Shown here one piece after another: positions 6,276 through 35,561 of a DNA stretch of 64,000 bases. The DNA is from Candidatus Dormiibacterota bacterium. Its GTDB lineage: Bacteria > Chloroflexota > Dormibacteria > Aeolococcales > Aeolococcaceae. Positions within the stretch are counted from its first letter, which is position 1, and each line of letters begins with the position of its first letter. The stretch covers positions 261,703 to 325,702 of the forward strand of contig CAWKDT010000020.1 of assembly GCA_963848445.1 (NCBI GenBank), given 5' to 3'. Below the pieces are notes generated by a model. It did no database searches. It saw only the letters and a list, made by a program, of their open reading frames with translations, and was not told where the DNA came from. The position numbers and the translations under genes are program-made.

Positions 6276-7013
6276 CTAGTTATCCGGCGGGGGGCTGCCA
6301 CCCGGCGAGGCCGAGCCCGAGTGATTGTCGTCGCTGCCACCGCCGCCGCCATCGGTCGGCCTTGGGCTGCGGCTCTGCGAGGACCGTGGGGTCTCACCGT
6401 TGCCGCCTGACGAGTCCGTCGGCTCCGGCTCCTTCTCCGTCTCGGTCGGACGCGGCGCCGGGCTACCGGCTGCCGGGATACGTTCGTCAGGCTCGAGGCC
6501 CGATTCGTCGGCTGTCAGTGTCGCTTCGTCCGTGTGATACCGGACCCACAGCGCGGACGTCCGGTCGGCGGGCAGCTCGGGCAACGCGGCCGCAAGCTCG
6601 CTCCTCGCGTCCGCGAGGCTCTGTTCGGGATCCACTCCGCCGTGCGCTTCGGCAAGCGATGCCTCAGCGAACTGCAGATGGAGCTCGGCGTCGTTGGATC
6701 CTGGAAGCTTGAGCATCACGCCCTGGCGCGCGGCACGGACCGCGAAGAGCGCCGACCCCGGCGCGGCGTTCCAGCCGGCTGCCGCCACGCCGACGGTCGC
6801 GGCGAGCGTCGCGGTGGCCGCGATGAGCCCGGCGTGCCGGAAGCGGAGCCGGAAGAGCGGCGCACGCGCGCGTGGAGCGGTGGCACTGGACGCCAGCGCC
6901 GCGAACATGGCGTCCTGGGCGCGCTCGCGCGCGTGACGGCGCGGCTCCCGGCGGCTCGTCCGGCGCCAGGCGCCGAGCTGCGCCGACAGGAGGGGATCGA
7001 TCACGTCGGTCAT
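6276..7013 (-). CDS. putative membrane-anchored anti-sigma factor
   Basis: Start overlaps the ECF sigma stop (ATGA); cytoplasmic N-terminus, single TM (LIAATATLAATVGVAAAGW), Pro/Gly/Ser-rich C-terminal tail. Confidence 0.5.
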   Translation of the reverse strand: MTDVIDPLLSAQLGAWRRTSRREPRRHARERAQDAMFAALASSATAPRARAPLFRLRFRHAGLIAATATLAATVGVAAAGWNAAPGSALFAVRAARQGVMLKLPGSNDAELHLQFAEASLAEAHGGVDPEQSLADARSELAAALPELPADRTSALWVRYHTDEATLTADESGLEPDERIPAAGSPAPRPTETEKEPEPTDSSGGNGETPRSSQSRSPRPTDGGGGGSDDNHSGSASPGGSPPPDN

Positions 7014-7594
7014 GCCGCCCTCCCGGCGTCGAGTGCGCGACGGAGTGACTCCAGCGCCCGGTGCTGCATCGATTTCACCGCGCCGAGGCTGCGCCTCGTG
7101 TTGAGCGCCACGTCCTCGATCGACTGGTCGAGGACGAATCGGCGCACGAGGATGTCCTGCTGCTCGTCGGTGAGCCGGACCATGGCGGCGCGTACCCGAT
7201 CGGACTCAAGGTTGATCTCGGCGATCGCGCTCGGATCCGGCGCGAGGGACTGTCCGGGGTTGACGGTGTTCGCGCGATATCGGACGGCCCGCCGGATGTG
7301 GTCGACGACCTTGTTCCGGCAGATGTGCAGAAACCATGCCTGCACCGCGGGTTCCCTCCGATCCCGAAGGTTTCGGATCGATGTCACTGCAGCTACGAAC
7401 ACGTCTTGTGCCACATCCTCAGCCGACGTCACGTCCCCGAGGCGCGCGAGCGCGTACGCATGCACGTCCGGGTAAAAGCGCTCGAACAGTGCGCTCCACC
7501 CGCGAGCCTCGCCGCGCTGTGCGGCCTCTACCGCCTGCGCGAGGCGGTTGGGATCTGCCAGGCTCTCGCCGCCTCGATCGCTTTCATCGAACAT
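7010..7594 (-). CDS. ECF-type RNA polymerase sigma-70 factor
   Basis: Region-2 (FERFYPDVHAYALARLGD…AEDVAQDVFV) and region-4 (LTDEQQDILVRRFVLDQSIEDVA…GAVKSMQHRALESLR) motifs; start chosen at MFDESDRGG. Confidence 0.85.
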   Translation of the reverse strand: MFDESDRGGESLADPNRLAQAVEAAQRGEARGWSALFERFYPDVHAYALARLGDVTSAEDVAQDVFVAAVTSIRNLRDRREPAVQAWFLHICRNKVVDHIRRAVRYRANTVNPGQSLAPDPSAIAEINLESDRVRAAMVRLTDEQQDILVRRFVLDQSIEDVALNTRRSLGAVKSMQHRALESLRRALDAGRAA

Positions 7595-8028
7595 CAAGTC
7601 GCTGGAACTCGCCTCCGGGATACGGGCAGGCGCCTCAACGGTGAAGGACGCAGGCCCGCCCGCCGCCGAACGTGGCGTCGCAGGTGTGCGACAGCCTGGA
7701 ACAGGGTAGAGCTCCACCAGCCCTGCGGGCGGGTGCGCCGGCGACACCGAGCTTCGACGGCACGAACCTCCCCGGGCAGACCGGGCACCCCGCGCGACCG
7801 GAGCCCTGCTCGCCACCGACACGTCAGCAGGACGGGTGCGATATGTGTACATGGCCGCGGGCGATGCGATCGCCCTGGCTGCGGGCAGCGACGGCACCGT
7901 GTATCTCGCGACACAGGGCAACGGGATCGCGGCCGCCACCGCCCCCTGAGGCGCACCGCGAAAGGCGCATACGCCGGTGCCGGCGCGGACGCGAAGCGCC
8001 CGTCCGGCGGGTCGGTCCATGTGGCAGC

Positions 8029-9167: not shown

Positions 9168-10619
9168 GTGCTTGAGACGCCGGTCCTCGAACAGCTTCGC
9201 GCCGCCGTCGGCGCCGATGGGCTGATCACCGAGCCCGCGGCGCTGCGCACCTACGCGTGCGACGGGCTCACCGGACGGCGGGTCTCCCCCGCCGCGGTCG
9301 CGCTGCCCGCGACGACCGAGCAGGTGGCCGCCGTGGTGCGGAGTTGCGCGGCGGCCCGCGTTCCGTTCGTCGCCCGCGGCGCCGGCACCGGTCTGTCCGG
9401 CGGAGCACTCCCGGTCGCCGATGGCGTGGTCATCGGCCTCAGCAGGATGCGGTCGATCTTGAAGATCGACCTCGACAACCAGCAGGTCACCGTCCAACCC
9501 GGCGTGACCAACCTCGAGGTGAGCAAGGCGGTGCGACCGCTGGGATATTTCTACGCGCCGGATCCGTCGTCGCAGCAGGTGTGCACGATCGGCGGCAACG
9601 TCGCGGAGAACTCCGGCGGTGCGCACTGCCTCAAGTACGGGTTCACCACGCACCACGTGCTCGGTGCGACGTTCGTCACCGCCGACGGACGCATCGCCCG
9701 GCTCGGCGGCGCCGTGCGCGACTCCCCCGGCTACGACCTGCTCGGCGTCGTCATCGGCAGCGAGGGAACCCTCGGCATCGTGACCGAGGTCGTGCTGCGC
9801 ATCGTGCGCGTGCCGGAGTCCACGGAGACGATCCTCGCGGCGTTCTCGAGCATGGGTGATGCGGGTGAGGCCGTCTCGCGCATCATCGCCGCGGGGATGA
9901 CGCCGGCGGCAATCGAGATGATGGACCGGCTGGCGATCCAGGCGTGCGAGGAGACGGTGCACGCGGGCTATCCGGACTGCGGCGCCGCACTGGTCGTCGA
10001 GCTCGACGGTCCCGCTGTCGAGACCGTCGCGCTGCTCGCTCAGGTCACCGAGATCTGCACCGCGAGCGGCGCGACGAGCATCCGCGTCGCCGCCGATGAC
10101 TCGGAACGCGCGCTGATCTGGAAGGGGCGGAAGGCCGCGTTCGCCTCCATGGGAAGGATCAGTCCGGACTACTACGTGCAGGACGGCGTCATCCCTCGAA
10201 CGAGGTTGCGCGAGGTGCTTGAATCGATCGGCGACCTCTCCGCGGCGTACGGGTTGCGCGTGGCCAACGTCTTCCACGCCGGCGACGGCAACCTGCATCC
10301 CCTGGTGCTGTACGACGGCGCGGAGGCGGGGGCCGCGGAGCGCGCGCTCGAGCTGGCCGGCAAGATCCTCGGATCGTGCGTCGCCGCCGGGGGATCGATC
10401 ACCGGCGAGCACGGGGTCGGGTCGGACAAGGCCTGCCACATGCCCGCGATGTTCAGCCCCGAGTCGCTGTCGGTGATGGGCCGGGTGCGCGACGCGTTCG
10501 ACGATCGCGATCTCTGCAACCCGGGAAAGGCGCTGCCGACGCCGCGGCTGTGCGGCGAAGTTCCCGGCGTGTACCGCCCCCATGCCGCCGAGCTGGCGGG
10601 CCTGGCGGAGCGCATGTGA
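9168..10619 (+). CDS. glcD: glycolate oxidase FAD-linked subunit GlcD
   Basis: FAD-binding-4 domain (RGAGTGLSGGALP) plus C-terminal FAD-linked oxidase domain (GSITGEHGVGSDK); GTG start. Confidence 0.85.
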   Translation: MLETPVLEQLRAAVGADGLITEPAALRTYACDGLTGRRVSPAAVALPATTEQVAAVVRSCAAARVPFVARGAGTGLSGGALPVADGVVIGLSRMRSILKIDLDNQQVTVQPGVTNLEVSKAVRPLGYFYAPDPSSQQVCTIGGNVAENSGGAHCLKYGFTTHHVLGATFVTADGRIARLGGAVRDSPGYDLLGVVIGSEGTLGIVTEVVLRIVRVPESTETILAAFSSMGDAGEAVSRIIAAGMTPAAIEMMDRLAIQACEETVHAGYPDCGAALVVELDGPAVETVALLAQVTEICTASGATSIRVAADDSERALIWKGRKAAFASMGRISPDYYVQDGVIPRTRLREVLESIGDLSAAYGLRVANVFHAGDGNLHPLVLYDGAEAGAAERALELAGKILGSCVAAGGSITGEHGVGSDKACHMPAMFSPESLSVMGRVRDAFDDRDLCNPGKALPTPRLCGEVPGVYRPHAAELAGLAERM

Positions 10620-24743: not shown

Positions 24744-25023
24744 CGAGATGCGCTTGACTCGCCGGACGGGACGCGGTATCTCGACTTCAACAGCCAGTTG
24801 GTGGGCGTGAACATCGGCCACGGGACAAGCGTGTCGTGGCGGCGATCGCACGCCAGGCCGAGCGACTCGCTTACATCAGCCCCTTCATTGCGCACGAGCC
24901 CCGGGCGCTGCTTGGAACGTGATGACCAACCCGCCGCTGCGCATCCCCGAAGAGCAGCTCGCAGCGGGATTCGCGGTCATCGACGAGGCTCTGGCGATCA
25001 CCGATCGATCCGTCAGGCCGTAG
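24729..25023 (+). pseudogene. decayed class-III (ω-)aminotransferase remnant (N-terminal about 60 aa + frameshift + C-terminal about 30 aa; the central about 330 codons are deleted)
   Basis: Frame 0: …GTRYLDFNSQLVGVNIGHG; +2 frame continues DKRVVAAIARQAERLAYISPFIAHEPRALLGT*; then a third fragment …NPPLRIPEEQLAAGFAVIDEALAITDRSVRP* ending at 25023. Confidence 0.6.
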
Positions 25024-25036
25024 AGTCTCCGGCGCC

Positions 25037-26017
25037 GTGGTCGAGTCGGAGGTTCTTGTCGGCGTGGTCGAGGGCGAGGAGCCCAGCAGCGGGCTGCTCG
25101 GCGCGCACCCGGGGGTGCGCTACACCTTCATCGACCCTTCAGAACCGACCGGTGCGGAGGCGTCGCATGCGGACGCGCTCTTCATCTGGAACGTCCGCGG
25201 CGGGTTCCTCCACCGGCAGTGGCACGAGTTCGACCGGCTGCGCTGGGTCCACACCGCGACCGCCGGCGTCGAGCATCTGCTGTTCCCCGAGTTGGTGACA
25301 AGTGACGTGGTGGTCACCAACTCACGCTTCCTGTTCGACCAGGCACTCGCCGAGTACACGATCGGGCTCATGCTCTGCCTGAGCAAGGACTTCGGCACGA
25401 CCATCCTCCATCAGACCCAGCACCGCTGGGACCAGCGCGGGACCGATACGCTCGCAGGCAAGGTCGCGGTCATGGTGGGGGTGGGGCCGATCGCGCGGCG
25501 GACCGCGCACATGGTGAAGGCGCTCGGCATGACGGTGCGCGGCGTCGGGCGCACGTCTCGTGACGGGGACCCCGACTTCGGCGACATCGTCGCGTCGACG
25601 CATCTCGTCGAGGCGCTCGCCGGGGCCGACTATGTCGTGGTGGTGCTGCCGGGCACGCCGTCGACCGCCGGCCTGGTCGACGCGGCGACGATCCGGTCGC
25701 TCAAGCCGACCGCGCGGCTGATCAACGTCGGACGCGCCGCAACCCTCGATCAGGACGCCCTGGCCGAGGCGCTGCGCGCGGGCCGTCTCGCCGGTGCGGC
25801 GCTCGATGTCGTCAGGCCCGAGCCACTGCCCGCCGACGATCCGCTCTGGGATGTCCCGAACCTCATCATCTCGCCGCACATGTCGGGCGATCACAAGGGC
25901 TGGCGCGACGAGGCCGTCGCGATCTTCGAGCGGAATCTCGAGCGGTGGCGCAGCGGTGAGCCGCTCCTCAATGTCATCGACAAGCACCTCGGCTATGCGC
26001 CTCGGGATAACCCCTGA
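25037..26017 (+). CDS. D-isomer-specific 2-hydroxyacid dehydrogenase (glyoxylate/hydroxypyruvate reductase-like)
   Basis: GTG start; NAD-binding GxGxxG (VGVGPIARRTAHMVKALGM); catalytic R/E/H region (NVGRAATLDQDAL…ISPHMSGD). Confidence 0.8.
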   Translation: MVESEVLVGVVEGEEPSSGLLGAHPGVRYTFIDPSEPTGAEASHADALFIWNVRGGFLHRQWHEFDRLRWVHTATAGVEHLLFPELVTSDVVVTNSRFLFDQALAEYTIGLMLCLSKDFGTTILHQTQHRWDQRGTDTLAGKVAVMVGVGPIARRTAHMVKALGMTVRGVGRTSRDGDPDFGDIVASTHLVEALAGADYVVVVLPGTPSTAGLVDAATIRSLKPTARLINVGRAATLDQDALAEALRAGRLAGAALDVVRPEPLPADDPLWDVPNLIISPHMSGDHKGWRDEAVAIFERNLERWRSGEPLLNVIDKHLGYAPRDNP

Positions 26018-26121
26018 GCTGACGTTGCGTCGTGCCGCATGCGCGGGCTGACCGCCCGAGGGCCGGCGTATGGTGGCAGCGAATCCTCAGCATCCAGACG
26101 ATCACGGGAGCAGACACACCG

Positions 26122-26511
26122 ATGCCGCACAGCGATCATCTCCAGCAGTCCATCTCCGTCGACGACATCGCACCGCTCGCACTGATGCACGGGGTCCGTG
26201 CCCGGCCGGTCCACGGTGAGCACATCACGCTGGCCGTCGTGGAGATCGATCGCAGCGCGGGGATGCCGGAGCATCACCACATGAGTGAGCAGGTCGGCAT
26301 CGTGGTCCGTGGGGAGTTCACCTTCACGATCGGTGGTGAGACCAGACTGCGCCGAACCGGCGACATGTGGGTCATTCCCGCGTCGGTTCCTCACACCGTC
26401 GAGGCCGCCGGGCCCGAGGGTTGCACCGTCCTCGAGTCGTTCTCACCTCCGCGCGCGGATTGGGCGGACATCACGCGCGAGCACCCATCACGAGGCCGCT
26501 GGCCCGGCTGA
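26122..26511 (+). CDS. cupin-domain protein
   Basis: His-containing cupin motif (HHHMSEQVGIVVRGEFTFTIGGE … MWVIPASVPH). Confidence 0.6.
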   Translation: MPHSDHLQQSISVDDIAPLALMHGVRARPVHGEHITLAVVEIDRSAGMPEHHHMSEQVGIVVRGEFTFTIGGETRLRRTGDMWVIPASVPHTVEAAGPEGCTVLESFSPPRADWADITREHPSRGRWPG

Positions 26512-27099: not shown

Positions 27100-27501
27100 C
27101 CGGTTCGGTCGAGTGTAGAGCGGTAACCCGCACTGTGCGCCAAAGGCATCACCCCGGAGTACTCGGGCACCGCAGCGGGGCGTTGCGCCGGTGCCGTGAC
27201 GCGTCGTTACGGGGTGATGCGGATCAACGCGGCCGGGTCAGCGTCCGAGGAGGGGTGAGCGCGGGCCGTCTCCAGTTCGCCCGCATGCCGTGGACGGCGC
27301 AGCCGCCGATCCCGGATGTCACGGCGGTGTGACGGCGCGGCGGTCGATTTCCGAAACGCCATGCCCGCCTATGACAGTGTTGGGCGCGGGTCACGTGCGG
27401 TCGCTCGCGGGTGACGGTTTCTTCGAACAGTGCGGGATGCGACGCTCGGATGCACCCTACGGGCGCGATGCTCCGATCATCAGATGGACACGCGACACAC
27501 C

Positions 27502-30500
27502 ATGACCCTCGGGCATCGCGCCTGGAACCTCAGGGGAAACCGGCGGCGGACCGGCTCCCGTACCGCGCGCCCGCTGACGGCCGCGCTCGCGGCGACAGCG
27601 ATCGCGCTGCTCTCCGGTGGTGTCGCCGGGCACGCCGTGGCCCTGTCGACGACGACGCTGGCATCGGGGCTCAACGCCTCGATCTACGGTCAGCCGGTCA
27701 CGTTCACCGCGACGATCACCCCGGTCTCGCCCGTTCCGACGGGTTCGGTCACCTTCCAGGACGGCGGCGCCAATATCGCGGGCTGTGTCAATCGTGCGGT
27801 CGCGGCGCGAGTCGCCGCCTGCACGGTGAGCACGCTGACCGCGGCCACCCACACGATCACCGCCGTGTACGGCGGGAACGGGACCTACGCGGGAAGCACG
27901 TCGATCGCGGTGATCCAGGTGGTGAACCCCGGCGACACGACGGCAGCCCTCGGCGCGTCGGCCGACCCGTCGGTGAGCGGGCAGACCGTGACCTATACCG
28001 CGACGGTGACAGCGATCGCACCGGCGTCCGGCACTCGGACGGGGACGGTGAACTTCGAGGATGGCGGCGTCACGATCACTGGATGCGGGGCGAAGGCCGT
28101 TGCGGCAGCGGGCACCGCCACGTGCGCCGCGGCGTATGCCGGACCGGGATCGCACTCGATCACCGCCACCTACAGCGGCGACGGCAACTTCGCGGGATCG
28201 ACCTCCGCAACGTTTGACCAGAACGTGAACCAGGGCGCGACCTCCACCGCGCTCGGATCATCGGTCAATCCCTCACGCACCGGCGCCAACGTCACCTTCA
28301 CCGCCACCGTGACGGCGACTGCGCCGGCATCGGGCACGCGGACGGGGGCCATGAACTTCCAGGCGGACGGCGTGACGATCACGGGGTGCGGCGCGCAAGC
28401 CGTCGCTGCCTCCGGGAAAGCGACCTGTGTCACCAATGGGCTCGCGGTGGGCACGACCGCCATCACCGCTGTCTACAGCGGGGACGCGAACTTCACGGGC
28501 TCGACATCGTCGACGCTGACGCAGGTGGTCAACCAGGGCGCCACGGCGACGACGCTCGCATCGTCCCTCAACCCCTCGAGCACCGGGGTGAACGTCACCT
28601 TCACCGCGACGGTGAAGGCGACCGCGCCCGCCTCGGGCACGCGGACCGGCACGGTCGACTTTCAGGACGGCGGCGTCGACATCGCAGGGTGCGGCGCCCA
28701 GGCGGTGGCGGCTGCCGGCACCGCGTCGTGCACCACCAATGCGCTCGTCGCCGGGTCGCACTCGATCACCGCGACATACAGCGGTGATGCGAACTTCGTG
28801 ACCAGCACCTCCGCACCACTCGCACAGACCGTCATGAGCACCACCTCGACCGTCGTGGCCTCGAGCGTGAACCCGTCAGTGCTCGGACAGGACGTTCAGT
28901 ACACGGCAACCGTGAACGGCGGACCGTCGGTGACCGGGACGATCACGTTCCGCGACGGCGGAGCGAGCATCGCAGGATGCGTCGCGGTGCCGGTGAGCGC
29001 CGGGATCGCATCGTGCACCGAGGCGCCGACCGTCGGCTCGCATGCGATCACCGCCGTCTACAGCGGCGATTCGGCCGACGCCGCGAGCACCTCGCCGGCC
29101 ATGTCGCAGGTCGTCGGCGCCGATGGCACCACGACCGTCATCACCACCGCCGTGAATCCTTCGGTGTATGGGCAGTCGGTGACGTTCACCGCCACGGTGA
29201 CCGCCAACGCCCCCGGTGCCGGGACTCCCACGGGCAAGGTGACGTTCCAGAGCGGGGGTGCCAACATCGCCGGGTGCGGCAACGTCACGATCGTCTCCGG
29301 ATCGGCGACCTGCACCGCGACCACGCTGAGCGTCGGACCCCATTCGATCGTCGGCGCCTACAAGGGCAGCACGAGCTTCCTGACCAGCACGTCGGGCGTC
29401 TTCACGCAGACGGTCGACCAGGGTGCCACCGCAACCGTGGTGGCGTCCACGGTGAACCCGTCCGTCACCGGTCAGGCGGTGGCGTACACCGCCACGGTCA
29501 GCGTGGTCGCTCCCGCAGCCGGGTCGCTGAGCGGAACGGTCGAATTCCAGGACGACGGCGTGACCATCGCCGGCTGCGGGGCTCAGTCACTGGTCGCCGG
29601 GGCCGCGAGCTGCACCGTCACCTACGCTGGTGCGGGTGACCATGCGATCACCGCCGTGTACAGCGGTAACACCAACTTTGCCGCCTCCACGTCGCCGAGC
29701 ATCACCCAGAGCGTCGATGGGGCATCGACGTCGATCGGGCTCGCGTCGCCGGTGAACCCGAGCGTCGCCGGTCAGGTCGTGACGATCACCGCCTCGGTGG
29801 CCGTGATCGCGCCGGGCGCCGGCACTCCGAGCGGCACCGTCGAGTTCCAGGACGGCGGCGTCGACGTCGCCGGCTGTGCGGCGCAGGCGCTGTCGGGATC
29901 GGGCAGCTCGAGCTGCACCACGTCGTTGGCGACCGCCGGCACACACTCGTTGACGGCGATCTACAGCGGCGATGCGAACTTCGCCGGTTCCGCGTCCCTG
30001 AGCATCGACCAGACCGTCATCCAGGCGTCTACCGGCACTGCATTCGCTGCTTCGCTGAACCCGTCGGTGACCGGTGAGGTCGTGACCATCACCGCGACGG
30101 TGACCGTCAGCGCGCCGGGGGCGGGAACGCCGACCGGCACGATCGACTTCCAGGACGGCGGCGCCACGATCGCAGGATGCGGCCCGGTGCCGTTGTCAGG
30201 GCCCGGGAGCGCGACATGCGTGACGTCGTTCCCGACCGCCGGCGCGCATCTCATCACCGCGGTCTACAGCGGCGACGCCGACTTCGACAGTTCGACATCG
30301 CCGGCGCTCGCGCAGACCGTCGCGCAGGGAGCCACCACGACCACGATGGCGTCGTCGTCGAATGGCCTCGTCGTCGCGGGGTACGAGGTCACGCTCACCG
30401 CCGCAATCACACCGGCGTCGCCCGCGAGCGGCGCTCCGACCGGCGCCGTGGAGTTCATGGACGGCACCACGCCGGTCAGCGGGTGCACCGCGCAGCCGCT

Positions 30501-30759
30501 GGTCGCCGGCGTCGCGCGGTGCAGCGTCGCCTACGCAGCCGCGGGGGTCCATGCGGTGAGCGCTGCGTACAGCGGCGACCACGACTTCACGGGCTCGACA
30601 TCGCCGAGCCTCACCCTGACTGTGAGCCTGGATCCGTTGGTGCCGGACACCGGCGCGCATTCGACACCGTCGGTGTGGGGTGGCATCGCGGTCCTCGGTG
30701 GATTCCTGCTGCTGTGCCTGGGGATATTCGTCCGCCGGCGGGGTCGTTCAGCGGCGTAG
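27502..30759 (+). CDS. cell-surface protein with about 11 tandem bacterial Ig-like repeats and a sortase-type C-terminal sorting signal
   Basis: Signal peptide; about 95-aa repeats each with NPSxxGQxVTxTATV…GTVxFQDGGxxIxGCG…A.C…HSITAVYSGDxNFxxSTS; C-terminus LVPDTG + hydrophobic helix + RRRGRSAA. Confidence 0.8.
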   Translation: MTLGHRAWNLRGNRRRTGSRTARPLTAALAATAIALLSGGVAGHAVALSTTTLASGLNASIYGQPVTFTATITPVSPVPTGSVTFQDGGANIAGCVNRAVAARVAACTVSTLTAATHTITAVYGGNGTYAGSTSIAVIQVVNPGDTTAALGASADPSVSGQTVTYTATVTAIAPASGTRTGTVNFEDGGVTITGCGAKAVAAAGTATCAAAYAGPGSHSITATYSGDGNFAGSTSATFDQNVNQGATSTALGSSVNPSRTGANVTFTATVTATAPASGTRTGAMNFQADGVTITGCGAQAVAASGKATCVTNGLAVGTTAITAVYSGDANFTGSTSSTLTQVVNQGATATTLASSLNPSSTGVNVTFTATVKATAPASGTRTGTVDFQDGGVDIAGCGAQAVAAAGTASCTTNALVAGSHSITATYSGDANFVTSTSAPLAQTVMSTTSTVVASSVNPSVLGQDVQYTATVNGGPSVTGTITFRDGGASIAGCVAVPVSAGIASCTEAPTVGSHAITAVYSGDSADAASTSPAMSQVVGADGTTTVITTAVNPSVYGQSVTFTATVTANAPGAGTPTGKVTFQSGGANIAGCGNVTIVSGSATCTATTLSVGPHSIVGAYKGSTSFLTSTSGVFTQTVDQGATATVVASTVNPSVTGQAVAYTATVSVVAPAAGSLSGTVEFQDDGVTIAGCGAQSLVAGAASCTVTYAGAGDHAITAVYSGNTNFAASTSPSITQSVDGASTSIGLASPVNPSVAGQVVTITASVAVIAPGAGTPSGTVEFQDGGVDVAGCAAQALSGSGSSSCTTSLATAGTHSLTAIYSGDANFAGSASLSIDQTVIQASTGTAFAASLNPSVTGEVVTITATVTVSAPGAGTPTGTIDFQDGGATIAGCGPVPLSGPGSATCVTSFPTAGAHLITAVYSGDADFDSSTSPALAQTVAQGATTTTMASSSNGLVVAGYEVTLTAAITPASPASGAPTGAVEFMDGTTPVSGCTAQPLVAGVARCSVAYAAAGVHAVSAAYSGDHDFTGSTSPSLTLTVSLDPLVPDTGAHSTPSVWGGIAVLGGFLLLCLGIFVRRRGRSAA
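27650..30620. repeat. in-frame tandem array of about 285-bp units (about 10.5 copies) encoding the Ig-like domains
   Basis: The same about 95-aa protein unit recurs across 27.65–30.62 kb; copies are diverged but clearly periodic. Confidence 0.7.
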
Positions 30760-32070
30760 GGAATCGCGGCGGTCCACGACGCGCTGGAGCTTGCCGGACG
30801 ATCGTTCCAGGGTTCCCGGATCGACGACCTCGATGCCCGCGGTGACGCCCACGCGACCCTTCACCGCGTGGGCCAGCTCCCGGGACGCAACCTCGCGTCG
30901 CTCGGGCGCGCAGTCGGGGCGAGCCTCGACACGCACCGTCAAGGTGTCCAGGCGGCCCTGACGTTCGAGCACGAGCTGGAAATGTGGCGCGAGCCCCTCC
31001 GTGCGCACCACGATCTCCTCGAGCTGCGTCGGGAAGACGTTCACCCCGCGAAGGATGATCATGTCGTCGGTGCGCCCCATCACCTTTGCCATGCGGCGAA
31101 AGCCGGGTCGCGCGGTGCCCGGCATCAGCGTCGTCAGGTCGCGGGTGCGGTAGCGGATGATCGGCAGCGCCTGCTTCGTCAACGATGTGAAGACGAGCTC
31201 GCCGATCTCGCCGTCGGGGAGCACCTCACCGGTCTTCGGATCGATCACCTCGGGATAGAAGTGATCCTCCCAGATGTGCAGCCCGTCCTTGGTCTCGACG
31301 CACTCCTGGGACACGCCGGGCCCCATGACCTCGGACAGGCCGTAGATGTCGACGGCATGCATGTCGAGCCGATCCTCGATCTCCGCGCGCATCGCCTCGG
31401 TCCACGGCTCCGCGCCGAAGATCCCGACCTGCAGTGAGGATGCTCTCGGATCGAGCCCCTGACGCTCGAACTCGTCGAGCAGCGCGAGCATGTACGACGG
31501 CGTGACCATGATGATCGACGGCTGGAAGTCGCAGATCAGCTGCACCTGGCGCTCGGTCATGCCGCCGGACACGGGCACCACCGTGCAACCAAGCCGCTCC
31601 GCGCCGTAGTGCGCGCCCAGGCCACCGGTGAACAGCCCGTATCCGTATGCCACGTGCACGATGTCGCCGCGGCGCCCGCCCGCGGCGCGGATCGACCGTG
31701 CCATCAGGTCGGACCAGATGTCGAGGTCCTCCTGCGTGTATCCGACCACGGTCGCTCGACCGGTCGTCCCGCTGGATGCGTGGACGCGGCGCACGTCCGT
31801 CCGCGGCACCGCGAACATGCCAAAGGGGTAGTTGTCGCGGAGATCACCCTTGGTGGTCAAGGGGAATCTCGCGAGATCGCTGAGCGATCGGCAGTCGTCC
31901 GGCGTCACTCCCGCCGCATAGAAGGCGCGCCGGTAGTGCGGCACATTGGTGTATGCGTGCTGCAGCGACCAGCGCAGCCGGCTGAGTTGCAGATCGAGGA
32001 CCTGGTCCCTGGTCAGCCGCTCCCCCGGGTCGAGCTCATCCGGACGCGGCGCAACCCCAAGCCGGGTCAC
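30748..32070 (-). CDS. paaK: phenylacetate-CoA ligase
   Basis: GTG 32070 (VTRLGVAPRPDELD…); adenylate-forming motifs (ASSGTTGRATVVGYT, YGLSE, FTSLTKQALPIIRYRTRD); about 440 aa. Confidence 0.85.
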   Translation of the reverse strand: MTRLGVAPRPDELDPGERLTRDQVLDLQLSRLRWSLQHAYTNVPHYRRAFYAAGVTPDDCRSLSDLARFPLTTKGDLRDNYPFGMFAVPRTDVRRVHASSGTTGRATVVGYTQEDLDIWSDLMARSIRAAGGRRGDIVHVAYGYGLFTGGLGAHYGAERLGCTVVPVSGGMTERQVQLICDFQPSIIMVTPSYMLALLDEFERQGLDPRASSLQVGIFGAEPWTEAMRAEIEDRLDMHAVDIYGLSEVMGPGVSQECVETKDGLHIWEDHFYPEVIDPKTGEVLPDGEIGELVFTSLTKQALPIIRYRTRDLTTLMPGTARPGFRRMAKVMGRTDDMIILRGVNVFPTQLEEIVVRTEGLAPHFQLVLERQGRLDTLTVRVEARPDCAPERREVASRELAHAVKGRVGVTAGIEVVDPGTLERSSGKLQRVVDRRDSLRR

Positions 32071-32071
32071 G

Positions 32072-32470
32072 TCACGCCGTCTCGCGCTCGATCGTCCGGC
32101 TCGTGCCGCGGAACTCGGCGATGATGTCATCGCCGCGCCGAACCGTGACGTCATACACGCCGGAGCGCCCGAACCGGGTGCGCTCCTCGGCGCGCGCCTC
32201 GAGCAACTCCCCTGCGTACGACGGCGTGATGAAGGTGATGTGCACGGAGGCCGCCACCGCGACCGGGCCACGGCTGTTGCACGCGCACGCGAACGCCGTG
32301 TCGGCGACGGCGAAGACGAACGCGCCGTGGGTGATGCCGTGGCCGTTGACCATGTCGGGGCGCACCCGCATGGTCGCCGTGGCGCTTCCCTCCCCCACCT
32401 TCGTCACCACGATGCCCATCGCCCGCGATGCCTCGTCCCCGGACATCATCCGGGACGTCGAATCGGTCAC
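32072..32470 (-). CDS. paaI: PaaI-type hotdog-fold thioesterase
   Basis: 132 aa; NGHGITHGAFVFAVADTAFACA hotdog motif; stop abuts the paaK GTG (GTGA-type coupling). Confidence 0.7.
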   Translation of the reverse strand: MTDSTSRMMSGDEASRAMGIVVTKVGEGSATATMRVRPDMVNGHGITHGAFVFAVADTAFACACNSRGPVAVAASVHITFITPSYAGELLEARAEERTRFGRSGVYDVTVRRGDDIIAEFRGTSRTIERETA

Positions 32471-32531
32471 ATCATCTCCCAGTGGCCGGCGGCGGCGACG
32501 CGTCCCATGATGCCAGGGTCGTCACAGCGCA

Positions 32532-33885
32532 TTACGGACGCTCGACCCACAGGAAGCTGGTGAAGTTCTCGCCCAGGTCCTGCAGGTTGTCCTCGATGAC
32601 GCGCAGCCCGTGGAGGTCGGCGAGGACGCTGCTCCCCATGGTCGCGATGCTCGGGGCGAGGTCCCCCCGGGCGAGGAGCTCGGCCACCTTCGCGTGGTCG
32701 ATGAGGTCGCCCTCGCCGCTCGTCTGACGGAGGTGCGGGTACTTCCGGCGCAGCGTTTCCTGGCACTGTGCGAGGACCTGCGGATGGGTCATCACGGTGT
32801 CGACGCCCTCGAGGTCGGCGGAGCTCGCAACCATCAGGGCGTGCGCGATCTTGATGGCGAACTCCTCGACGATGGCGAACCGGTACCTGGCCATGGCGGA
32901 CACCAACTCGCCGACCATGCCGCCGACGGAGTTGTGGATCGCGAACTGACCGCGATCGACCGCGCCCTCGTGGAGCGCGCGCAGCACGTGCTCGGTGGTG
33001 TGCAGGTACACAAGCTCATACGCGACGTCCGGCGTCCGGCTCATGTACTGGCGTGCCGCTTCCTCGTTGAAGCTGCCACGCCCTCCCTGGATGCCGACGA
33101 GCAGGCGGTCGCTGACGATGCGGTTGGGCAGGAGCTGGTCGAAGACGCTGTCCTGCGCATGCGAGAGGCGAACCCGCATCGCGCTCGTGTAGGGGTTGCG
33201 CGTCTGCAGGTCGACAAAGAGCTGCTCGGTGTCGTGGGTCACCTGCGCGGTGATCTCGTGGAGCATCCGTGTTCCCAACGTATCGATCGGGGTCGGTGCG
33301 AAACCGAAGCGTTCCAACGTCCGCCCGACGAAATGGGTGACTCCCTGGCTCTCGGCGGCGAGGCGGTCATGCTCGTCGGCGGTCATGACGACGACGTTCA
33401 AACCCCGGCTCGCGAAGTAGTCCTTCCACCGCTCGAACGCCGGGCCGGGCATCCGGTAGCGATCGAGCACGATGGTCTGCCCGGCGAGGCCACCGACCGC
33501 CACGCTGTCCGGGCCGAACATCGGATGCGTCAGCATCGCGTGGTACGGAGGGCGGAAGGTGGCGACCGAAGACCGCGCGGGGGTGCACCTTGACGGAGAG
33601 CACGTCGACGAGCGTTCGCTCCCCGCCGAGCTCGGCGAAGAGCGGCACATGTTCGGCGAGCGTCGCCTCGAACACGGAGATCGGGACGCAGTAGAAGATC
33701 ACGTCCGCGGACAGCGCCTCCCGCAGGGACACGCAGGTGAATCCCTGCGCGACGGCCTGCTCGCGCAGGACATCGGCCACCTCGTGCACGAGCACGGTCG
33801 TGTCCTCGCGGAGCATCGACGCCCAGAGCCGGCCGAAGCGGCCGAACCCGATCACCGCAGCTGTCGACGCCGGAAACACGGGCAT
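32532..33885 (-). CDS. prephenate dehydrogenase (TyrA) fused to a prephenate-dehydratase-like domain without ACT domain; apparent +1/−1 frameshift near 33545
   Basis: N-terminal frame: MPVFPASTAAVIGFGRFG…RAVFGRHLPPSV; continues in another frame as YHAMLTHPMFGPDS…; downstream PDT-like domain (LVGIQGGRGSFNEEAA … THPQVLAQCQETL … NFTSFLWV) ends with no ACT domain. Confidence 0.6.
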
Positions 33886-33893
33886 GGGCGGCG

Positions 33894-34487
33894 CTACAGG
33901 GTGAACGTCGTCCGCCCGAGGGCTGCCAGCGCCTCGGGGTCGCCGTCGACTGTGACCTGCGCCGCGGTGCGCCGGCCACTGAGGAAGAGCGTGAGCTCCG
34001 TGGCAGGGCCGCGCATCAGCGCCCGCGGCCCCGAACCGAACGCTCGGCGGACGCCGTCGGGCCTCACCAGCTCGAGGCTGTACGGACCGAGCCTGCGGAC
34101 GAGCCGTTTCGCGCTGTAGCCGGTGAGCCGCCACGCAAGCGCGTCGACGTCGGGGATGCCGGTGCGCGGCCCGCGGCCGTTGGCCCTGCGGACGTCCTCG
34201 TGGTGGATGAAGAATTCCAGGCCGTTCAGCACGTTGCGGAGGCGGGGCAGGCGCCACGGGATGAGCGGAGCCCCGGCTCGCAGGCGCGCGACCAGCGCGG
34301 GAAATCCCTTCGCCTTCTCGGCAGCCAGGCGCGGTGCCGGCCACCGATGGAAGTGCTCGCGGAGGACCAGATGTGCGGCGATGTCCGCCGCCGTCCACCC
34401 CTCACAGAGGGTGGGGGCGTCAGGGCCCACCTCGATGAGCAGGTCACAGAGCTCACGGCGTTCCCGGACGTCGATGGGCTCGCTCAC
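33894..34487 (-). CDS. MDMPI-N / DinB_2-like protein (mycothiol-dependent maleylpyruvate isomerase N-terminal-domain family, TIGR03083/03085-like)
   Basis: CEGWTAADIAAHLVLREH motif and 197-aa size typical of this actinobacterial family. Confidence 0.5.
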   Translation of the reverse strand: MSEPIDVRERRELCDLLIEVGPDAPTLCEGWTAADIAAHLVLREHFHRWPAPRLAAEKAKGFPALVARLRAGAPLIPWRLPRLRNVLNGLEFFIHHEDVRRANGRGPRTGIPDVDALAWRLTGYSAKRLVRRLGPYSLELVRPDGVRRAFGSGPRALMRGPATELTLFLSGRRTAAQVTVDGDPEALAALGRTTFTL

Positions 34488-34769
34488 GCCGGCTCCGCCG
34501 GCGACATGACGTGCTCGACCGCGCTGGGATGCGGAGCAGCATCCCCTGGCGCCGCGAGGAAGCCAGGCAGTGACGCTGATCGCGACGGGAAGGTGACGTT
34601 CATGGACGTCGAGGGTAGCGGGGTGGCCGGATCCAGCCGTCGCCCGGGGCGCATCGAGTTCATCGACACTCGAGGGATCGGCGATATTTGGCGACCTCGG
34701 GTTGTGGGTACGGTAGTTGTGAAGCCTGGCGAGGCTGCGCGGCAGCGTTTCCGGGTGCAGAGACAGAGG

Positions 34770-35561
34770 ATGTCTGAGGACGCGGTTCGAGGTGTGGCCC
34801 AGATGGCTTCACGGGCGGCTCGAGATGAACATGGCGGTGCGGGAACCGCCACGAATCGGCTGCTCGGCGCCTTGCCCGATGGTTGTCGTGAGCGAATTAC
34901 CGGGTTGCTGAGTCCCGTCGCGCTGAGCCTCAGGAGTGTGGTCTTCGAGCCGGGGCAGACCATCAATTCGGTCGACTTCCCACGCGACTGCGTCGAGTCA
35001 CTCGTCACCCCCGTCGCGGACGGCCGCACGGTCGAGGTGGCGGCCACGGGCAATGACGGGATCGTCGGAGTCCCGCTCGTGCCGGGCGGCTCCCTCACCG
35101 TCCGTGCGGTCTGCTCGGTCCCGGGGATCGTCGATCGCATCGATGCGACGGCGTTCGATGAGCAGATCAAGAGCGACCCCCATCTGCGTGAGCTGGTGGA
35201 CGACTACGAGCAATCCCTCATCAACCGGCTCTCGATCGCGGTCGCCTGCAATCGGCTGCACTCGACGACGGAGCGGCTCGCGCGGTGGCTGCTCACCAGC
35301 AGCGATCAGACGGGTGGGATGACCTTCGCCACCACGTTCGCATTCCTCGGGGAGCTGCTCGGCTGCAGCGAGACTTCGGTTGGGCGAAGCGCCCAGTCGC
35401 TGCAGGATGCGGGGCTCATCCGCCATGAGCGCGGGCGCATCACGATCGTGGATCCCGCAAACCTCCGGATGGCGGCGTGCGAGTGCTACGCGCTGATCAA
35501 GCGGGAAGCAGACGGAGTGATCCAGAAGGCGCTGGTCCGCACGCTCGTGCTCACTGACTGA
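34770..35561 (+). CDS. Crp/Fnr-family transcriptional regulator (cNMP-binding + HTH)
   Basis: AGAGGA RBS + ATG 34770; cNMP-binding β-barrel (VVFEPGQTINSVDFPRDCVESLV) and C-terminal HTH (FLGELLGCSETSVGRSAQSLQDAGLI). Confidence 0.8.
   Translation: MSEDAVRGVAQMASRAARDEHGGAGTATNRLLGALPDGCRERITGLLSPVALSLRSVVFEPGQTINSVDFPRDCVESLVTPVADGRTVEVAATGNDGIVGVPLVPGGSLTVRAVCSVPGIVDRIDATAFDEQIKSDPHLRELVDDYEQSLINRLSIAVACNRLHSTTERLARWLLTSSDQTGGMTFATTFAFLGELLGCSETSVGRSAQSLQDAGLIRHERGRITIVDPANLRMAACECYALIKREADGVIQKALVRTLVLTD

Follow-up and report, generated by a model that had tools for sequence, protein, structure and literature searches.

The window analyzed here is a 64,000-nucleotide (nt) stretch of contig CAWKDT010000020.1, from a Candidatus Dormiibacterota bacterium, with a GC content of about 69%. 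On its minus strand, at 33885-32532, it carries a fusion gene that joins a TyrA dehydrogenase to a prephenate dehydratase (PDT)-like domain without an ACT domain. We refer to this domain as PDT'. The reading frame of the gene is interrupted once. Sequence and neighborhood comparisons make it probable that the locus encodes an intact bifunctional enzyme of primary metabolism and that the gene is broken only on paper. The enzyme would combine a plant-type arogenate dehydrogenase, for Tyr, with an unregulated dehydratase, for phenylpyruvate/Phe.

We propose that one 450-residue protein holds two enzymes of primary aromatic amino acid biosynthesis. The N-terminal TyrA half would convert arogenate to tyrosine, presumably with NAD+ as the cofactor. 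The PDT' half would be an ACT-less prephenate/arogenate dehydratase of a distinct "TSF" subfamily, without regulation. Its catalytic residues and its context suggest that it most likely leads to phenylpyruvate or phenylalanine by the usual decarboxylating dehydration. With a neighboring or distal aminotransferase, the single polypeptide would then serve both branches below prephenate. The parts of the gene are listed here, with the basis for each in parentheses.

33546..33885, minus strand: 5' portion of the fusion gene, read in frame A and coding for residues 1 to about 113 (translation; Pfam PDH_N; invariant columns)
33546..33552, minus strand: frameshift site, CCCTCCG (nucleotide alignment with intact relatives)
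32535..33545, minus strand: 3' portion of the fusion gene, read in frame B and coding for residues 114-450 (translation, Pfam, family alignment)
33525-33527, minus strand: TyrA catalytic His, H120, in THPMFGP (frame B part)
33231-33233, minus strand: Asp218 in the plant-type C-terminal helical domain of the TyrA half (frame B part)
32538-33098, minus strand: ACT-less PDT' domain, residues 263-449 (Pfam)
32931-32936, minus strand: H317-N318 of PDT', which also holds Q373 (family alignment)
32553-32561, minus strand: T442-S443-F444 of PDT' (family alignment)

Gene structure and the cause of the frame break

The fusion gene starts with an ATG at 33885-33883. Frame A translates as MPVFPAS...GRHLPPSV, beginning MPVFPASTAAVIGFGRFGRLW...VFGRHLPPSV, and is nonsense thereafter. 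This part contains the TyrA nucleotide-binding domain, with GFGRFG (G13, G15, and G18), E35 after strand beta-2, and an LSVK motif. Frame B reads ...YHAMLTHPMFGP... and continues to ...NFTSFLWVERP and the stop codon at 32534-32532; this second frame also reads ...YHAMLTHPMFGPDSV... onward to ...ENFTSFLWVERP.

The break sits between the codons for the invariant Pro111 (33555-33553) and for Tyr114 (33545-33543). Here there are seven bases (CCCTCCG, 33552-33546) where two codons are expected, that is, one extra base. We aligned the nucleotide sequence with the intact genes of two sister assemblies, L091 (CCGCCGGC-GTAC) and L005 (CCGCCGAAA-TAC), and found a gap of exactly one base at the break. 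Deletion of one base yields a protein of 450 residues. This repaired protein aligns end to end with intact orthologs of 450 to 452 amino acids (aa), without a gap at the break, at 66-91% identity and with E values down to 1e-273. The original prediction, made from the letters of the window, had described a TyrA plus PDT-like fusion with a frame break at about 33545 flanked by TyrA motifs. The position of the extra base agrees with this, and so do the domain matches: after repair PDH_N is matched with an E value of 2e-11 (44 bits against a cutoff of 26.5), and PF00800, the PDT family, with an E value of 3.6e-35 over profile positions 1-178 of 181. Only one residue follows the PF00800 match. Therefore, the ACT domain is missing, as had also been claimed.

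The gene call in the source genome, P0051, is a truncated protein of 334 aa from a 348-kb contig. Its 90%-identity cluster contains two intact 450-aa proteins, P0126 and P0123, plus fragments. P0126 comes from a short-read Logan contig and is about 98% identical to the repaired protein, as read off from the two sequences. Its contig has the gene order Crp regulator, TIGR03085-like gene, fusion, paaI, and paaK, which matches the window. P0123 sits on a 732-kb contig. On two other long contigs of the cluster the gene is broken elsewhere, between TLG and TRMLHE, and copies in two further metagenome-assembled genomes (MAGs), L064 and L082, are broken too. In L005 and L091 the fusion is intact and paaK is split; in L005 the TIGR03085 gene is split as well.

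Frameshifts in the related assemblies lie at 9806-9810 and 12759-12781 in L005, at 7850-9138 in L091, and near 10001-11340 in L064 and L082. That the sites differ among related long-contig MAGs suggests a noticeable indel error rate in those assemblies.

Because an intact short-read ortholog exists and the breaks are scattered over differing genes and positions in near-identical long-contig assemblies, an indel introduced in long-read assembly is the most likely source of the extra base at 33546-33552, and the organism itself most likely has an intact gene. Thus, of the causes named in the original prediction, an indel error is the likeliest. Scattered positions of this kind would not be produced by shared decay or by programmed frameshifting. 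A programmed +1 frameshift was ruled out also because near-identical and more distant orthologs are read in a single frame and there is neither a stop nor a slippery context at the site.

The competing explanation is that the frameshift is genuine and that the gene is a very recent pseudogene in the source strain. The truncated call in the genome itself speaks for it, as does the recurrence of broken copies across several assemblies. However, both frames are intact save for the extra base, and the repaired gene closely matches P0126 in sequence and in surrounding gene order. Moreover, the other assemblies break at different positions, and the sister assemblies break other genes of the block. 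Assembly indels, whether random or systematic, give such a pattern and shared decay does not, and we regard a genuine inactivation as unlikely.

We also looked for further frameshifts in the window with the open reading frames (ORFs) of relatives, and this search gave mostly noise (errors in the relatives themselves and shadow ORFs). At 25728-26508 on the plus strand a single L005 ORF matches in two frames; one match covers the end of a 2-hydroxyacid dehydrogenase gene (24926-26017) and the other a cupin gene (26113-26508). Either one of the two assemblies may have a frameshift here, or the double match may be an artifact of a shadow ORF.

The predicted dehydrogenase and dehydratase halves

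The closest solved relatives of the TyrA half are the soybean PDH1 structures (profile E value of 1e-40). An AlphaFold model of the ortholog P0001 (pLDDT of 82) superposes on soybean PDH1 with a TM score of 0.87 and a root mean square deviation (rmsd) of 2.5 Å. The pTM of this model is 0.55, at which the relative placement of the domains is uncertain. The nearest matches of the N-terminal 255 residues are plant-type TyrAa, GmPDH1 (5T9E/5T9F/5WHX), which belongs to an offshoot of these enzymes in legumes, and bacterial clade I TyrAa proteins such as Spirochaeta SsTyrA, at about 29% identity. Shared with them are the GFGxFG loop, the catalytic His of HPMFGP, a C-terminal domain of the TYRAAT1_C type, and an acidic residue at position 222. 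PF26213 (TYRAAT1_C) is precomputed for all orthologs. Unlike the characterized members of this group, the window protein has a C-terminal PDT-like domain.

We counted residue conservation in an alignment of 79 members of the fusion family. The glycines G13, G15, and G18 of GFGRFG (residues 13-18) are kept in 77 to 78 members and the catalytic H120 in 78. Asp218 is present in all 79. It aligns in the HMMER alignment with residue 222 of GmPDH1. At this residue the wild type, which uses prephenate, has Asn, and the N222D mutant (5T9F) and plant arogenate dehydrogenases have Asp. Schenck et al. reported that an acidic residue at this position tracks arogenate specificity in plant, spirochete, and alphaproteobacterial TyrAs and that mutation of the position switches substrate preference (PMC5681985). 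Because Asp218 matches this plant determinant, the TyrA half is predicted to be a plant-type arogenate dehydrogenase with tyrosine as its product. The residue after beta-2 is Glu35 here and Asp in most relatives, whereas the NADP-preferring soybean enzyme has Ser-Arg-Ser. An acidic residue at this place suggests NAD+ as the cofactor.

We compared PDT' with 28 canonical PDT domains, mostly from loci that carry the fusion. PDT' retains Asn318, Gln373-Cys374, Thr442, and Phe444. Thr442 is kept in 77 of the 79 family members, and Asn318 and Gln373 are kept in 77 to 78. In the E. coli P-protein, mutagenesis reportedly showed that T278, the TRF-motif Thr, is essential for catalysis and that N160 and Q215 are important. 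Two motifs depart from the canonical form. PIENS is replaced by AIHNS, with His317 in place of Glu in 76 of 79 members, and TRF is replaced by TSF, with Ser443 in place of Arg in 72; Glu and Arg are each found in 100% of the 28 canonical domains. The chain ends 6 residues past TSF, while the canonical PheA of the same loci runs about 100 residues further, with the ESRP motif.

A Foldseek search with the P0001 model showed that PDT' folds like the PDT catalytic domains 6VH5 and 2QMX (about 190 columns; rmsd, 3.4-3.7 Å). This fold is common to PDT', the canonical PheA proteins of Chlorobium (2QMX) and Brucella (6VH5), and the E. coli P-protein (AroQ-PDT-ACT). PDT' and canonical PheA also have in common the motifs GxxGS/A-F/Y, xNSxGG, HPQxLxQC, and NxTxF, in which the TRF-motif Thr is kept. 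Unlike canonical PheA and the P-protein, PDT' has no ACT domain and thus no Phe-binding feedback site, and its changes of Glu to His317 and Arg to Ser443 are nearly fixed. GqqA (PDB 7AM0), a PDT-fold protein described as a quorum-quenching acylase, is also among the structural neighbors of PDT'. Because GqqA carries an unrelated activity, the PDT fold alone does not fix function.

An exhaustive HMMER search with the PDT' domain alone gave 5,328 relatives. The closest are ACT-less stand-alone proteins (about 190-210 aa), AroQ chorismate mutase (CM)-PDT' proteins (about 285 aa), and TyrA-PDT' proteins (about 445 aa). All of these have NxT[ST/E/F]F in place of TRF. PDT' is 35-53% identical to the ACT-less stand-alone clade and 24-27% identical to canonical PDTs. 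Few matches of the stand-alone PDT' profile carry a name. Those that do are called "prephenate dehydratase (domain-containing protein)" and come from Patescibacteria, Dojkabacteria, and Roizmanbacteria; the names decarboxylase, AerD, and SalX do not appear among the matches. One CM-PDT' gene stands in the row DAHP (3-deoxy-D-arabinoheptulosonate 7-phosphate) synthase, CM-PDT', pheS, pheT (L089, 6208-10915), and a stand-alone copy is found some 4 kb away from pheT/pheS. PDT' relatives are thus found fused to AroQ chorismate mutase, like the dehydratase of the E. coli P-protein, and the row with pheS and pheT resembles an unregulated P-protein setting.

Further stand-alone (about 195 aa) or CM_2-PDT' (about 285-293 aa) examples are found at 7001-7630 in L087 and L088 and in P0136, P0142, P0147, P0150, and P0424, mostly from Patescibacteria by source name.

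The fusion family and alternative roles of PDT'

A protein search with the repaired fusion gave 1,144 matches, and the best 120 are PDH_N plus TYRAAT1_C plus PDT proteins or truncated copies of them. A scan of genomes gave 262 loci, distributed over Dormibacterota, Melainabacteria/Obscuribacterales, several lineages of Patescibacteria, Bdellovibrionales, and a small number of proteobacterial MAGs. Among the MAG labels at 70-77% identity to Dormibacterota, some probably reflect mis-binning. Database names for family members are generic (prephenate/arogenate dehydrogenase family proteins). The copy in the window is an ordinary member of a large, strongly conserved fusion family.

In 80 loci we grouped every ORF lying up to 6 kb from the fusion gene. 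The partners conserved across phyla belong to primary aromatic amino acid synthesis. DAHP synthase is nearby in 34 of the loci and a canonical PheA with ACT in 28. A class I aminotransferase abuts the fusion gene in 6 loci, and aroA and aroB lie near it in loci of Patescibacteria, Dormibacteria (L042), and Bdellovibrionales. An ordinary tyrA with a separate ACT-bearing pheA in the orthologs had been named beforehand as a finding that would speak against the original prediction. This came true in part: the orthologs keep the fusion, but many genomes also have a full-length pheA-ACT right beside it.

The PheA neighbor in Dormibacterota is a single PDT-ACT-DAHP synthase protein of about 690 aa, with TRF and ESRP motifs and a type I-beta DAHP synthase (L008, 11341-13401, minus strand). 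Its gene is convergent with the TyrA-PDT' gene and lies 12-45 nt downstream of it, an arrangement found in 28 of the 80 related loci. The PDT-ACT part of this protein might be a Phe-sensing regulatory module of the first pathway enzyme. In another Dormibacterota clade (L001-L004) a class V aminotransferase gene (Aminotran_5, 6908-7963) ends 38 nt before the fusion start (8001) and takes the place of the TIGR03085 gene of the window.

Several points weigh against a bifunctional enzyme of primary metabolism. We infer both of its substrates from sequence. The two active-site departures from canonical dehydratases, His317 and Ser443, could change substrate or chemistry. In the 28 Dormibacterota loci a canonical PheA-ACT adjoins the fusion, and a second dehydratase looks redundant there; this leaves room for a sensing or scaffolding role of PDT' or for a split between arogenate and prephenate as substrates. 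The spacing between the TIGR03085 gene, the fusion, paaI, and paaK is tight (8, 61, and 1 nt) and fits cotranscription in this lineage. Lastly, we keep the genuine recent inactivation in the source strain, considered above, as a rival.

In a tentative, minority view, the "TSF/HNS" PDT' is not an ordinary prephenate dehydratase but an arogenate-specialized dehydratase or a domain with a new chemistry or a sensing role. Another proposal makes PDT' a nonenzymatic regulatory or scaffolding domain of TyrA that senses prephenate, arogenate, or Phe, with Phe made by a canonical PheA next door or elsewhere. The co-occurrence of PheA-ACT in 28 of 80 loci fits this proposal, and so does the loss of the Arg of the TRF motif. 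PDT is a fold of the periplasmic-binding-protein type, which suits ligands, and GqqA shows a different activity on it; TyrA enzymes also gain regulatory domains by fusion, for example, ACT and REG (PMC1173090). However, N318, Q373, and T442, the candidate residues for catalysis, hardly vary from phylum to phylum, conservation of the domain is general, and the PDT' subfamily also occurs alone and fused to chorismate mutase beside DAHP synthase and pheST, like the P-protein. We consider a nonenzymatic regulatory or scaffolding role quite unlikely.

The original prediction had favored a third possibility, in which PDT' is a nonaromatizing prephenate decarboxylase of the BacA/AerD/SalX type that, together with TyrA, PaaI, and PaaK, makes or activates an aryl- or dihydro-aryl-acetate. 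Like PDT', the BacA/AerD/SalX proteins are PDT-fold proteins of about 200 residues with PF00800 only and no ACT. The two noncanonical active-site positions leave some room for a different chemistry, and paaI and paaK lie close by on the same strand in the window and in its nearest relatives. We compared PDT' with the BacA family directly. NCBIfam has no BacA-specific model. The BacA query matches annotated BacA proteins at 99% identity and a Bacillus "prephenate decarboxylase" at 87%. The phmmer set held 53 BacA-family proteins, 28 canonical PDTs, and 150 PDT' relatives. The PDT' of the window matched all 28 canonical PDTs (30-51 bits) and all 150 PDT' relatives (91-321 bits) but none of the 53 BacA-family proteins at an E value of ≤10. 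By this comparison, which covers BacA and not AerD or SalX, PDT' falls outside the BacA clade.

The other evidence goes the same way. BacA has no NxT[RS]F motif and ends in ...IPMSWSLFGKG, whereas PDT' has the motif, and Thr442, the counterpart of the TRF-motif Thr, is kept across almost the whole family. BacA relatives come by source name from Bacillus, Paenibacillus, Streptomyces, and a few enterobacteria, whereas PDT' adjoins primary aromatic-pathway genes: the family neighborhoods hold DAHP synthase, PheA, aminotransferase, aroA, and aroB, and the small genomes of Patescibacteria have PDT' next to pheS/pheT. The absence of decarboxylase, AerD, and SalX names among the stand-alone profile matches also counts against the decarboxylase. 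As for the small pathway around paaK and paaI, the pair comes after the fusion in 5 of 80 related loci. All 5 are from close relatives within Dormibacterota, and 4 of them have about 1.3 kb with a conserved opposite-strand ORF between the fusion and paaI. Operon conservation, which had been put forward as a check, is therefore lacking, and the acetate pathway did not hold up. Because of the phmmer split, the retained Thr, and the genomic setting, we judge a natural-product decarboxylase to be highly improbable.

Neighboring genes and known fusions

The genes around the fusion follow the order on the minus strand given in the original prediction (MDMPI-like gene, fusion, paaI, paaK), as the profile matches and coordinates show.

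33894..34487, minus strand: gene for a TIGR03085/maleylpyruvate isomerase family (DinB-like) metal-binding protein (TIGR03083 and TIGR03085 profiles)
32072..32470, minus strand: paaI, hotdog-fold hydroxyphenylacetyl-CoA thioesterase (TIGR02286, 140 bits; cutoff, 118.9)
30748..32070, minus strand: paaK, phenylacetate-CoA ligase (TIGR02155, 706 bits; cutoff, 646.3)

The upstream gene scores 74 bits with TIGR03083 (cutoff, 50) and 136.1 bits with TIGR03085, just below the cutoff of 138.85; MDMPI_N/C matches are weak. It ends 8 nt before the start codon of the fusion, in the same direction, and adjoins the fusion only in the closest relatives (L005, L091, and the P0126 contig). The gap from the fusion to the downstream paaI is 61 nt. 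paaK likely starts with the GTG at 32070, 1 nt past the paaI stop codon, and this spacing is identical in the P0126 contig. No other paa genes (paaABCDE or paaFGHJ) were found in the annotated part of the window, and a promoter/terminator scan of 30400-35000 found no elements. In this lineage the fusion may be cotranscribed with paaI-paaK, to judge from gene spacing, and a functional link via aryl-acid metabolism is possible. A conserved paaK-paaI operon as a feature of the family was ruled out by the linkage in 5 of 80 loci, mostly with the intervening opposite-strand ORF. Thus, paaI-paaK is a lineage-specific neighbor and not a defining partner of the fusion family.

On the other side of paaK, at 27430-30759 on the plus strand, is a gene for a 1,109-aa protein with many Ig-like repeats (Big_3_5 in the L091 ortholog), a signal-like segment at the N terminus, and a hydrophobic anchor at the C terminus. 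This gene and paaK are convergent, and their 3' ends overlap by 12 nt.

In the literature we found no description of a natural ACT-less TyrA-PDT fusion, only the Archaeoglobus fusion and E. coli pheA-tyrA deletion strains. The former is the four-domain TyrA-AroQ-PheA-ACT protein of Archaeoglobus fulgidus (Song et al. 2005, PMC1173090), the only natural protein that we found described as having both a TyrA dehydrogenase and a PDT domain in the same chain. It has a chorismate mutase between TyrA and PDT, keeps its ACT domain, and has a TyrA predicted to be of the TyrAc-delta class. In contrast, the window protein joins TyrA directly to PDT', has a plant-type TyrA, and has no ACT.

For annotation, these results mean that the gene is best described as one likely bifunctional TyrA/PDT protein of 450 aa. 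The labels pseudogene and truncated hypothetical protein should be avoided, as should its use to seed a biosynthetic gene cluster. A plant-type TyrA joined to an ACT-less dehydratase is the usual gene form in Dormibacterota and Melainabacteria and is present in several Patescibacteria. For pathway evolution, it offers a simple case of the organization and regulation of the Tyr/Phe branch without a Phe-sensing ACT domain, and it adds new lineages for tracing where arogenate-specific TyrA enzymes came from. If PDT' were specialized for arogenate, it and an arogenate-specific TyrA would make up a branch-point enzyme in one chain, which would split arogenate to Tyr and Phe without ACT feedback. 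With this role, or with a new chemistry or a sensing role of PDT', the family, with its stand-alone and chorismate mutase-fused relatives in Patescibacteria, would be a previously unrecognized organization of the end of the pathway in several candidate phyla, and it may bear on the bacterial origin of plant-type TyrA enzymes.

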